49,370 bases of DNA from a virus (lineage: Duplodnaviria; Heunggongvirae; Uroviricota; Caudoviricetes), in IMG/VR virus record IMGVR_UViG_2522572023_000012. One strand, written 5' to 3'. Made by a program: the position numbers and the translations under genes. Position 1 is the first letter of the stretch. Each line of letters begins with the position of its first letter. The notes beneath the pieces are model-generated. The model was given only the letters and a program-made list of their open reading frames with translations. It ran no database searches and was not told the origin of the DNA. This document shows, one piece after another, positions 16,560-20,737 of the stretch.

Positions 16560-16772
16560 TCATGAAAGGTAAACATTGGCAGCTGAAGGGCCACGCAGAC
16601 CATTTATCCGGCAAAATTCCACGCGTAATCCGGTGGTAATTTCTTCTGCATCGCGGAGATTGAGCGCTGAAACATGAAGCTGGACATCGATACGACCATC
16701 GGATGGGGTGATAAGACCCTTGCCGCTTTTGCCGTCAAAGGTTTTGACAATTCCTGTCATTTTACGGGACAA
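16560..16772 (-). CDS. cspF: Cold-shock protein family member (CspF/CspH-like)
   Basis: [27 protein letters not shown]...[19 protein letters not shown], a cold-shock domain of the CspF/H subgroup. Confidence 0.8.
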
Positions 16773-17072
16773 AAAAATTCCTTAATACTGATAACTGGGC
16801 GCACTATACACACGTTCCTGAAGAAAGCTATAGTTTTTTGATGGGGTTGAAGATGGCTGGATGTCTAAAATAAACATTGCTTCATATGTTCAACTATGCG
16901 TTAATGATTGCGTCGGTTTGAAGAACAGACGATATACGAAGTAGTTTACTAAAGCAGTTCTCATTTCAGGTGTTATTCACTTATTCCTTCTTTGAGTCTC
17001 TCCAATTAAGTACGAAGTCGTTTCTGTTATACAAGCCATTTATGCCGAAAGGCTCAAGTTAAGGAATGTAGA

Positions 17073-17288
17073 ATGTCAAATAAAATGACTGGTTTAGTAA
17101 AATGGTTTAACGCTGATAAAGGTTTTGGCTTTATTTCTCCTGTTGATGGTAGTAAAGATGTGTTTGTGCATTTTTCTGCGATTCAGAATGATAATTTTCG
17201 AACCTTATTTGAAGGTCAAAAGGTTACCTTCTCTGTAGAGAGTGGTGCTAAAGGTCCTGCAGCAGCAAATGTCATAATTACTGATTAA
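17073..17288 (+). CDS. cspB: Cold-shock protein CspB
   Basis: [23 protein letters not shown]...[12 protein letters not shown]; near-identical to CspB as recalled. Confidence 0.9.
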
Positions 17289-17651: not shown

Positions 17652-17822
17652 TCAAGCTACAGCTTTAAGATTTGTCTGGAATACTTTGTTGCAATGAGGG
17701 CAGATCAAAAGGGCACCTTTTTGTACTCTTGAAAAACTGTGTTCTGACTCTTGGGTGCAGTTTGGGCAGGAACATTTAACGAGATAATTACGGCGTGATT
17801 TTGAGTCTTTACGTTCTGACAT
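17652..17822 (-). CDS. YdfK/YnaE-like small Cys-rich protein
   Basis: MSERKDSKSRRNYLVKCSCPNCTQESEHSFSRVQKGALLICPHCNKVF with two CxxC pairs; the ORF-track N-terminal extension is probably not translated. Confidence 0.65.
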   Translation of the reverse strand: MSERKDSKSRRNYLVKCSCPNCTQESEHSFSRVQKGALLICPHCNKVFQTNLKAVA

Positions 17823-18040
17823 AGGCTTTTCCTGTATAAATGGCCGTATACAGTACACTAAATATGAAAACATATCTCGTATTATTATTTAATATATGAT
17901 TTTCTTTTAAAATAATCACCCACATTTTTAATGTGTCTGTTTTTTAGCGCCGTTGAGAACAACGTTTGCTATAAAAACTAACCCATAGACTCCGATCTTT
18001 TCAAACATATTGCACCATCTGTGTACATCGGGGTGAGGAT

Positions 18041-18256
18041 ATGAAATCAATGGATAAGTTAACAACAGGTATCGCCTATGGCACATCGGCTGGTAATGCT
18101 GGTTTCTGGGCATTGCAGTTACTCGATAAAGTAACTCCGTCACAGTGGGCTGCAATCGGTGTGCTGGGTAGTCTGGTTTTTGGCCTGCTGACGTATCTGA
18201 CAAACCTTTATTTCAAGATTAAAGAAGACAGGCGTAAGGTTGCGAGAAGAGAGTAA
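18041..18256 (+). CDS. Holin (class II lambdoid S-like)
   Basis: 71 aa with two hydrophobic segments and a charged C-terminus ([13 protein letters not shown]); directly upstream of the lysis genes. Confidence 0.85.
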
Positions 18257-18260
18257 TCCA

Positions 18261-18812
18261 ATGACACAAGACTATGAACTGGTTGTGAAAGGAGTCCGCA
18301 ATTTTGAGAATAAAGTGGCGGTAACTGTAGCCTTACGGGACAAAAAACGCTTTGACGGTGAAATTTTTGACCTGGACATCTCGCTGGACCGTGTTGAAGG
18401 TGCCGCGCTGGAGTTTTATGAGGCAGCAGCCAGAATGAGAATCAGACAGGTATTCCTGGATGTTGCTGCCGGGTTATGTGTAGGGGATGAGCAGTCGCCG
18501 GAAAAGCGCCCCATAATTTTAGAGGCGCAGAATGTGTGGATAACCTACAAAGGAAAGCTACCGGGAAGAATTACTGGTTCTCTGAAGACGCCGCCGACGG
18601 CATTGCGGTCAGAAAAAGATGATATTGAATCGCCCATTGAAAAACTGGAGGGCAGCGTCGCTGATCTGAATAAAAAATTGTCGGTGCTGATCCCTTCTGA
18701 AGATGAAAAAAAACGCCGCGATGAGCAGTTTGCGGCGTTTTACGATTATTGCATTGAAGTTACTCGCAGGAGTTTTGTGAAGATTTTTGAGGAGGGTAAA
18801 TCTCTTCAGTAA
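18261..18812 (+). CDS. Hypothetical protein inserted between holin and endolysin
   Basis: 183-aa ORF from MTQDYELVV; lower GC than its neighbours; no recognised motif. Confidence 0.5.
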   Translation: MTQDYELVVKGVRNFENKVAVTVALRDKKRFDGEIFDLDISLDRVEGAALEFYEAAARMRIRQVFLDVAAGLCVGDEQSPEKRPIILEAQNVWITYKGKLPGRITGSLKTPPTALRSEKDDIESPIEKLEGSVADLNKKLSVLIPSEDEKKRRDEQFAAFYDYCIEVTRRSFVKIFEEGKSLQ

Positions 18813-19026
18813 GCTTAATGGCGGACGCTGCAATTAATTCAGGAAGGTCCGCAAGGTCATCTGTCAGTGGATATGATGAAAAATCGGCGGCAGTTCTGTT
18901 AAGAAGCGCTTTAACTAATTCCTTTTCCTTCTCCGGCAACAAGTTGATTAGAGCTACGACTGCTTGCCTGAGTGCGATTAAATCAGCAAAAGTTTGTTTT
19001 GGTAGATTTGTGTAATCCATAGTCAC
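18760..19026 (-). CDS. Hypothetical small protein, convergent with and overlapping the 3' end of the preceding ORF
   Basis: 88-aa ORF on the opposite strand within the lysis cassette. Confidence 0.3.
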   Translation of the reverse strand: MTMDYTNLPKQTFADLIALRQAVVALINLLPEKEKELVKALLNRTAADFSSYPLTDDLADLPELIAASAIKLTEEIYPPQKSSQNSCE

Positions 19027-19133
19027 CTCTGTGTTTATCAGATTGACATCCTCCTCCCGCCACTGCCCATCACTGGTGAGGTAAGATTTAACATATCCGG
19101 GGATTTGAAGCCGATAAATCCTGATAAATATCC

Positions 19134-20161
<1,028 letters not shown>

Positions 20162-20524
20162 ATTAATATTAAATCGGATTATTTTTAGCGCTGAATGTGA
20201 AATTTAAATAAAAAGGACTCTTCCATGAGTCAAAATCCTTGAAATCTTAAGGGTAAGATAAAAGGTCATTAGACAGAATGACACGTTTTATTAATAAATA
20301 AAGCTATTGTTTCATTCGTGTGTTTTTCTTTACAAAAGTAATCCTTGCTATGGTTGGTTAATCATGCGTTAATGGTGTTCTGGTTTGTTACAAAATTATC
20401 TGAAGCAGTCATTGTTATAATTTTATTATTTGTACCTCTTGAGATTTCCTTGTTGGTTTTTCTCTCTGATATTTTTTTTCGGACCATTCTGCCCAAGGGC
20501 TAACTTCTTCAAAAGGTAATAATG

Positions 20525-20737
20525 ATGTCTAACAAAATGACTGGTTTAGTGAAATGGTTTAACCCTGAAAAAGGTTTTGGTTTCATCACGCCGAAAGATG
20601 GTAGCAAAGATGTGTTTGTCCATTTCTCAGCTATTCAGAGCAACGATTTCAAAACGTTAACTGAGAATCAGGAAGTCGAATTTGGTATTGAGAACGGACC
20701 TAAAGGCCCCGCGGCTGTTCATGTAGTGGCACTTTGA
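20525..20737 (+). CDS. cspI: Cold-shock protein CspI
   Basis: [45 protein letters not shown]...AAVHVVAL. Confidence 0.9.

Follow-up and report, generated by a model that had tools for sequence, protein, structure and literature searches.

What are two convergent ORFs doing between the holin and endolysin genes of a lambdoid prophage? The question is raised by a stretch of 49,370 nucleotides (the window; IMG/VR record IMGVR_UViG_2522572023_000012), for which a sequence-only reading had described a rightward and a leftward ORF, overlapping at their 3' ends, as insertions in the lysis cassette. Neither was seen to have a recognizable motif, and accessory genes, antisense regulation and one spurious call were all considered. 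The geometry of that description holds: the ORF list has the 183-aa ORF on the + strand (ATG at 18261, stop codon ending at 18812), its coordinates bear out the convergent arrangement with overlapping 3' ends, and the overlap, estimated at about 50 bp, is 53 bp (Table 1). The leftward ORF, given as 88 aa, is also present (GTG 19026 to 18760), but its length is most likely 86 aa, from ATG 19020. In what follows, the reverse gene is referred to as Rv and the C-terminal extension of the forward ORF, which faces it, as F.

The lysis cassette and its forward late gene

The window is a Qin-like lambdoid prophage of E. coli: identity is 100% with O145:H28 RM12761 and 99.7% with CFT073, APEC O1, S88 and others. 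PGAP names the genes of this region, in series, ydfT (the Q antiterminator), cspF, cspB, ynfU, essQ, ydfR, a hypothetical protein, rrrQ, rzpQ and cspI. The features that matter for the argument are collected in Table 1. The lysozyme encoded by rrrQ has a hydrophobic N-terminus and is, by its sequence, predicted to be of the SAR type.

Table 1. Features of the lysis cassette and of the F/Rv module, in window coordinates
Feature	Position	Strand	Remarks
essQ-type class II (P21 S-like) holin, 71 aa	18041-18256	+	PF04971, E 7.3e-34; PGAP name essQ; M1/M4 dual start
YdfR/DUF1327 core, codons 1-112 of the 183-aa ORF	18261-18596	+	PF07041
F module, 71-aa C-terminal extension in frame with ydfR, residues 113-183	18597-18812	+	absent from 103- and 116-aa YdfR
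Terminator-like hairpin of Rv: AAAACGCCGC, 12-nt loop, GCGGCGUUUU, UUUU	18741-18706	-	read from sequence
F/Rv convergent 3' overlap	18760-18812	both	53 bp; last 17 F codons
Rv, 86-aa gene, small acidic three-helix protein (predicted)	18760-19020	-	phrog_2572; PGAP WP_001306174.1
Rv Shine-Dalgarno sequence, AGAGGTGA	19023-19030	-	GAGG core 5 nt before ATG 19020
Right flank common to all variants with any reverse cargo gene in the slot	19056-19133		
Rv 5' leader hairpin: CCAGTG, 5-nt loop, CACTGG	19060-19076	-	
Promoter-like element of Rv: TTTATC (19118-19113), 17 nt, TATGTT (19095-19090)	19090-19118	-	
rrrQ phage lysozyme	19134-19667	+	PF00959, E 6.9e-24; PGAP name rrrQ
rzpQ, DUF2514 Rz-like spanin	19664-20161	+	PF10721, E 1.9e-38

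Some observations on the surroundings can be set down here. Embedded within rzpQ in another frame is a lipoprotein-like ORF (19815-20111, + strand), which corresponds to rzoQ, the outer-membrane spanin of K-12, and has no PGAP annotation in RM12761 or CFT073. Three cold-shock-protein paralogues bracket the lysis cassette, cspF on the - strand and cspB and cspI on the + strand (16560-17288 and 20522-20737), as does the zinc-ribbon gene ynfU (17652-17873, - strand); the bracketing DNA is AT-rich (29-40% GC).

That lysis cassettes run from holin directly to endolysin, as had been assumed, does not hold as a rule for cassettes of this kind: the order S-ydfR-R is found in K-12 Qin and in many phages. 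In K-12 Qin a 103-aa ydfR (b1555) lies directly between essQ and rrrQ and abuts the latter; in phage PhiR40_1 a 116-aa form of YdfR occupies the same slot, and the order holin, YdfR, lysozyme is common to many phage records. YdfR/DUF1327 is the usual occupant of the interval between P21-type holin and endolysin in Qin-like and Stx-like prophages. The window resembles K-12 Qin in having YdfR in this slot, after an essQ-type holin and before rrrQ, and differs from it by the 71-aa fused module and the reverse gene.

The verdict of "no motif" fails for the forward ORF, of which residues 1-112 are DUF1327/YdfR (E 1.6e-41; the Pfam HMM PF07041 scores 140.8 bits against a cut-off of 25), and the whole of which matches phrog_2091 end to end (E 2.1e-111). 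(An in-frame TTG at 18240 would extend the ORF to 190 aa.) The ydfR DNA of the window is 91.7% identical to that of PhiR40_1 up to 18596, and homology resumes at 19107, leaving about 510 bp extra in the window. This stretch, 18597-19106, is additional to the 116-aa YdfR forms, and the proposal of accessory DNA within the lysis operon is supported. PGAP annotates only 18261-18596 as ydfR. In the window as in CFT073 it calls the gene a pseudogene ("incomplete, missing C-terminus"). Forms of 183 and 176 aa are abundant and carry, elsewhere, the annotation of intact YdfR family proteins.

In AF2 models, residues 1-74 of YdfR form three strands and a helix (pLDDT 68-86), followed by a disordered linker. 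Residues 1-72 of K-12 YdfR are reported to bind the N-terminal, catalytic half of RNase E and to co-purify RNA (PMC13232886), and the same residues of the window protein are ~83% identical to this RNase E-binding segment (as counted from alignment A1). By analogy with the K-12 protein, and because of that binding, the YdfR domain probably acts on RNA metabolism. The adjoining segment EKRPIILEAQNVWITYKGKLPGRITGSLKTPP (residues 75-112 of the 183-aa ORF, 18483-18596) is nearly invariant among DUF1327 proteins and disordered in AF2 (pLDDT 27-43); it may be a binding motif.

What of F? The module has no NCBIfam, PADLOC or Pfam match, and AF2 renders it as a helical hairpin at low confidence (pLDDT 41-51). 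It nevertheless behaves as coding sequence. Variation in its length leaves the frame intact: related loci show a 7-codon deletion and a 28-codon insertion, and about 12 codons are missing from the 171-aa protein P0089; in 297-aa relatives the F-homologous segment runs in frame into a further domain. In a Salmonella-type module, a homologue of F exists as a separate 73-aa protein (43% identity in the 35 C-terminal residues, E 5e-6). Its gene starts right against the stop codon of the spanin gene, and between two Salmonella-type variants it has a pN/pS of 0.35-0.38 (0.35-0.41 upstream of the hairpin), in both instances the lowest of six frames. Given this stand-alone homologue of nearly equal length, set directly against the spanin stop, the 183-aa ORF is most readily understood as ydfR(1-112) with a formerly separate small gene joined to it.

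The reverse gene and its signals

Is the leftward ORF a gene at all? The suspicion of one spurious call is not borne out, both frames behaving as coding. Purifying selection is moderate (pN/pS ~0.35-0.6). Among close relatives the ratio is ~0.4-0.6 for both genes, in a comparison of low power that fails to separate the Rv frame from its + strand mirror frame (18818-19015). The mirror frame shares the wobble positions of Rv, and it is the diverged homologues that settle the matter: the Rv frame alone of the six is without stops across them, and it has the highest identity and BLOSUM score of the six frames in every comparison with them. By these comparisons, Rv is a real gene. Its full length matches phrog_2572 (E 1.3e-53); the diverged relatives, gathered by exhaustive phmmer and profile search, are 89-108 aa long and 38-50% identical, with indels, and some come from Salmonella enterica. 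Prophages that carry such relatives are of Salmonella or, apart from the window, of E. coli type, and the late region offers three different positions for them.

The choice of start codon is decided by two observations: GTG 19026 is GCG in 12 of 32 aligned haplotypes, and a Shine-Dalgarno sequence is placed at ATG 19020 (Table 1). The start is therefore most likely ATG 19020, not GTG 19026, and Rv has 86 aa, as in PGAP. Diverged modules have the Shine-Dalgarno sequence TAAGGA, 6-7 nt from the start codon.

Remote-homology search and structure prediction, which the sequence-only reading had proposed for both ORFs, disclosed DUF1327 in the forward ORF and yielded no function for Rv or F. The AF2 model of Rv is a three-helix bundle (pLDDT 73), and its net charge, counted from the sequence, is about -5; from its appearance, Rv would be a binding or inhibitor protein, small, acidic and helical. 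Rv has no match in NCBIfam, the PADLOC models or Pfam; the PADLOC models (E up to 0.1) likewise match neither F, the 183-aa ORF nor the alternative cargo genes described below. A Foldseek search of the Rv model against PDB and BFVD returned nothing significant, and an Rfam search found no family. (Two technical notes: AcrIIC4 was the top match in two Rv searches, not significantly so, and was rejected as a homologue [E 0.7 for profile against PDB, E 4.2 with Foldseek, hhalign probability 10%]; and the DUF1823 label of the PhiR phage records was not reproduced, the only Pfam family that Rv hit up to E 0.1 being ABATE, at 0.074.) Both phrog_2572 and phrog_2091 carry the label "unknown function", so that membership in them is silent on mechanism. 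In the literature on DUF1327, the WP accessions and the PhiR phages, no functional study of the F/Rv module was found, and the titles and abstracts of papers on lysis-cassette morons and antisense transcription offered nothing relevant.

Rv comes with signals of its own. The hairpin with a 10-bp stem and U8 that begins 18 nt past its stop codon (RNA fold, -14.6 kcal/mol) is of canonical intrinsic-terminator shape and is a candidate terminator; a terminator scan missed it because the scan's loop limit is 8 nt. It falls within the F codons for EKKRRDEQFAAF. The same hairpin lies 3' of the Rv stop codon in the diverged module types 2 and 3, and so in all three types, the U-tract being poor in types 2 and 3. 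Six of the 10 pairs are invariant. One is compensatory, G-C being replaced by A-U where the F residues encoded are different. The covariation falls short of statistical significance.

Upstream of Rv a strict σ70 consensus scan found no promoter. The promoter-like element of Table 1 matches 7 of the 12 consensus positions, a weak match, and a promoter function for it is on that account something that we infer. In alignment A4, which includes the diverged modules, the invariant columns are TTTATC and the T, A, T and final T of the -10 element, at the same spacing; the element accompanies Rv even where no endolysin gene is adjacent. (A side observation concerns the conserved leader hairpin: at 19063 the + strand has C in the window and G in all 31 other haplotypes, a difference that breaks one of its pairs.)

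A convergent pair in an exchangeable slot

Wherever the ORF opposite Rv was examined, it proved to be of F type, to run in the late direction and to overlap Rv by 53-59 nt at the 3' ends; among the loci for which partner coordinates were obtained, the overlap is 59 nt in two diverged module types. Three diverged module types and five genomic contexts can be told apart by what Rv is paired with: 1) in the window and its close relatives, YdfR::F of 183 or 176 aa; 2) in the PhiR12 and PhiR5 phages, a Stx-type DUF1327::F of 169 or 211 aa; 3) in the type 2 module, a DUF1327 of K-12 type with a longer F joined to it (174 or 243 aa); 4) in a type 2 module downstream of the Q antiterminator, a stand-alone 144-aa ORF; and 5) in the type 3 module, the stand-alone 73-aa F directly after the DUF2514 spanin, in Salmonella-type prophages, which have different holins and whose endolysin is of the GH19 family. 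On this comparison of loci, F and Rv are a conserved convergent pair, and antisense interplay between them, overlapping as they do, is physically unavoidable. The sequence-only reading would have been refuted by a conserved lysis-cassette component opposed by an antisense ORF that shows no conservation. The first half of that is what was found, the forward protein being a conserved resident of the cassette, but the antisense ORF is conserved too, and the accessory-gene idea consequently survives for the reverse gene.

How widespread is the module, and how well is it kept? In full form it is found in 294 of 5,426 complete E. coli genomes (about 5%), CFT073, APEC O1, S88, HS and O145:H28 among them, and in 8 of 50,697 phage records; for most of these, including 2H10, PhiR63_1, PhiR5_1 and PhiR12, the propagation host is named. 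A search of plasmid records gave no match to the module. A scan of GTDB species representatives with exact-peptide patterns, which reach close relatives only, found it in E. coli only. Both ORFs are intact in 66 of 86 related loci, and a few haplotypes have frameshifts or a nonsense codon. In 7 of the 86 (L078 and six other IMG/VR loci, with the 176-aa form) the Rv start codon has changed from ATG to ACG, F being intact apart from a 21-bp in-frame deletion. With its start codon lost, Rv may be inactive in this common lineage and would be dispensable there.

The site itself has a larger history. Long DUF1327 forms that lack Rv are homologous to the window until about 18752, and the common right flank begins at 19056, which defines a variable core of 18753-19055. 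Rv is lacking at this site in K-12 Qin, in PhiR40_1 and in the 297-aa form, for which the breakpoints have been mapped. Elsewhere the slot holds other reverse genes. A prophage of E. coli O121 WL1277 has, between the same flanks (locus L011, 1274-1587), an unrelated 87-aa reverse gene (phrog_18136) with its own hairpin and T-run terminator, embedded in the forward DUF1327 ORF at KKSTPTKNEVL. Stx2 phage 86 has a 104-aa reverse gene (phrog_1853). In the holin-lysozyme gap of a prophage of E. coli O26 RM10386 (L013) there is a 233-aa reverse ORF, which has no Pfam, PHROG or PADLOC match and overlaps the last ~252 nt of a 263-aa DUF1327 ORF; neither of the two is annotated by PGAP. On either side of the cargo, PhiR5_1 is homologous to the O121 locus, and the 211-aa DUF1327 ORF of PhiR5_1 (L003, 1378-2013) contains an O121-type and then a window-type terminator segment, both in frame, which looks like the trace of successive cargo replacement. 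Comparison of these loci shows that, at the level of sequence, reverse cargo has been exchanged between fixed flanks.

Explanations, precedents and meaning

How is this arrangement to be explained? It is fairly probable, in our estimate, that a P21-type lysis cassette has acquired a small mobile two-gene module composed of a moron-like Rv and of F, the latter fused onto ydfR. Sequence and comparison show the parts: the Rv unit runs from the promoter-like element through the leader hairpin to a strong Shine-Dalgarno sequence and the ORF, and closes with the hairpin and its U8 terminator; F, a forward ORF of ~72 aa, has been joined in frame after codon 112 of ydfR to make the 183-aa ORF. Rv would be transcribed separately from its own weak promoter, probably in the lysogen, and the terminator within F would bring its transcript to an end. 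Late transcription, antiterminated once the prophage is induced, would cross the module in the opposite direction, making YdfR::F and at the same time opposing Rv, through collision of polymerases and through pairing with the whole of the Rv mRNA.

Alternatively, Rv alone might be functional, F being nothing but passive read-in after an upstream late ORF lost its stop codon; the apparent conservation of F would then reflect constraint on Rv and on the hairpin. The conserved ~35 C-terminal residues of F do map onto the Rv terminator and the overlap, so that the conservation of F could be partly second-hand; the low confidence of its AF2 model and the treatment of ydfR by PGAP as truncated after codon 112 also fit. 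Passive read-in does not readily account for an F that is open in all five contexts, for a stand-alone 73-aa gene with its start against the spanin stop, for length changes every one of which keeps the frame, or for the low pN/pS upstream of the hairpin. We consider it rather unlikely.

Another proposal has F and Rv interact as cognate partners, for instance as effector and antagonist (or immunity protein), or as a regulator of lysis timing or RNA decay. In the lysogen, F or YdfR::F would be neutralized by Rv, which convergent late transcription would switch off. In its favour, co-inheritance is strict across three diverged types and five contexts at a fixed overlap, F is fused to an RNase E-binding domain, and Rv is, in its AF2 model, a small acidic helical bundle. 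Physical overlap, however, by itself forces co-inheritance, defence and toxin-antitoxin models yield no match, and the convergent layout is unlike that of classical toxin-antitoxin operons; the lineage that has lost the Rv start codon and keeps F intact is awkward if F needs an antidote. All told, a cognate pair of this kind seems improbable.

There is a further reading, to which we give the same low credence as to a cognate pair: the ydfR-endolysin junction of P21-type lysis cassettes would be a promoter-equipped slot in which a shared leftward promoter and leader (19056-19133) drive swappable reverse genes, and F/Rv would be a state switch. The terminators of the cargo would then be encoded in the C-terminal extension, itself variable, of a late protein that binds RNase E. 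If this were true, Rv protein and RNA would be present in the lysogen, convergent late transcription would remove both, and YdfR::F would be freed to act on host RNA decay at lysis.

That the locus is decay debris, a ydfR pseudogene disrupted by junk DNA with a chance or shadow ORF on the reverse strand, has in its favour the PGAP label for ydfR here and in CFT073 and the few haplotypes with frameshifts or a nonsense codon, and is very improbable, being already largely refuted by the abundance of 183- and 176-aa forms annotated as intact elsewhere, by the 66 of 86 loci in which both ORFs are intact, by the module's presence in genome records of phages with propagation hosts, and by Rv homologues that at 38-50% identity keep ORF, Shine-Dalgarno sequence and hairpin.

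The preferred reading, a mobile module with a moron-like Rv, has its precedents in lambda. The bor gene of lambda is a moron: a reverse-oriented gene, expressed in the lysogen, that lies just downstream of Rz, after the spanin and before the terminase genes. Like lambdoid morons, Rv is an addition that some of the related phages carry and others lack, set opposite to the late operon with its own candidate terminator and promoter-like element, and the module of the Salmonella prophages lies, like bor, between spanin and terminase genes. The differences are that Rv has no sequence relation to Bor and no lipoprotein signal, that its terminator lies inside a forward ORF predicted to be translated, and that it is always accompanied, in the loci examined, by a convergent overlapping partner gene. 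The second precedent is OOP RNA, whose overlap of about 50 nt with the 3' end of cII leads to cleavage by RNase III. Here, too, convergent units overlap at their 3' ends, by ~53-59 nt, at a place where lysogenic and lytic programmes meet; the antisense partner in this instance, Rv, encodes a conserved protein. One can say that the insertion is of a known kind, an accessory or moron-type gene in a late operon, and that its obligatory overlapping partner with an embedded terminator is an unusual feature, apparently undescribed.

For annotation, the consequence is that two "hypothetical" calls, one of them labelled a pseudogene, become a defined unit, a ydfR fusion and a self-contained reverse gene; the 183- and 176-aa forms of YdfR should not be labelled pseudogenes. 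For the biology of these prophages, it is that their holin-endolysin junction is a recombination hot spot, at which different reverse genes are swapped between fixed flanks. Genes for lysogenic conversion, exclusion or defence are what is usually found at such swap sites, and the link to the RNase E-binding YdfR provides a concrete experimental handle.
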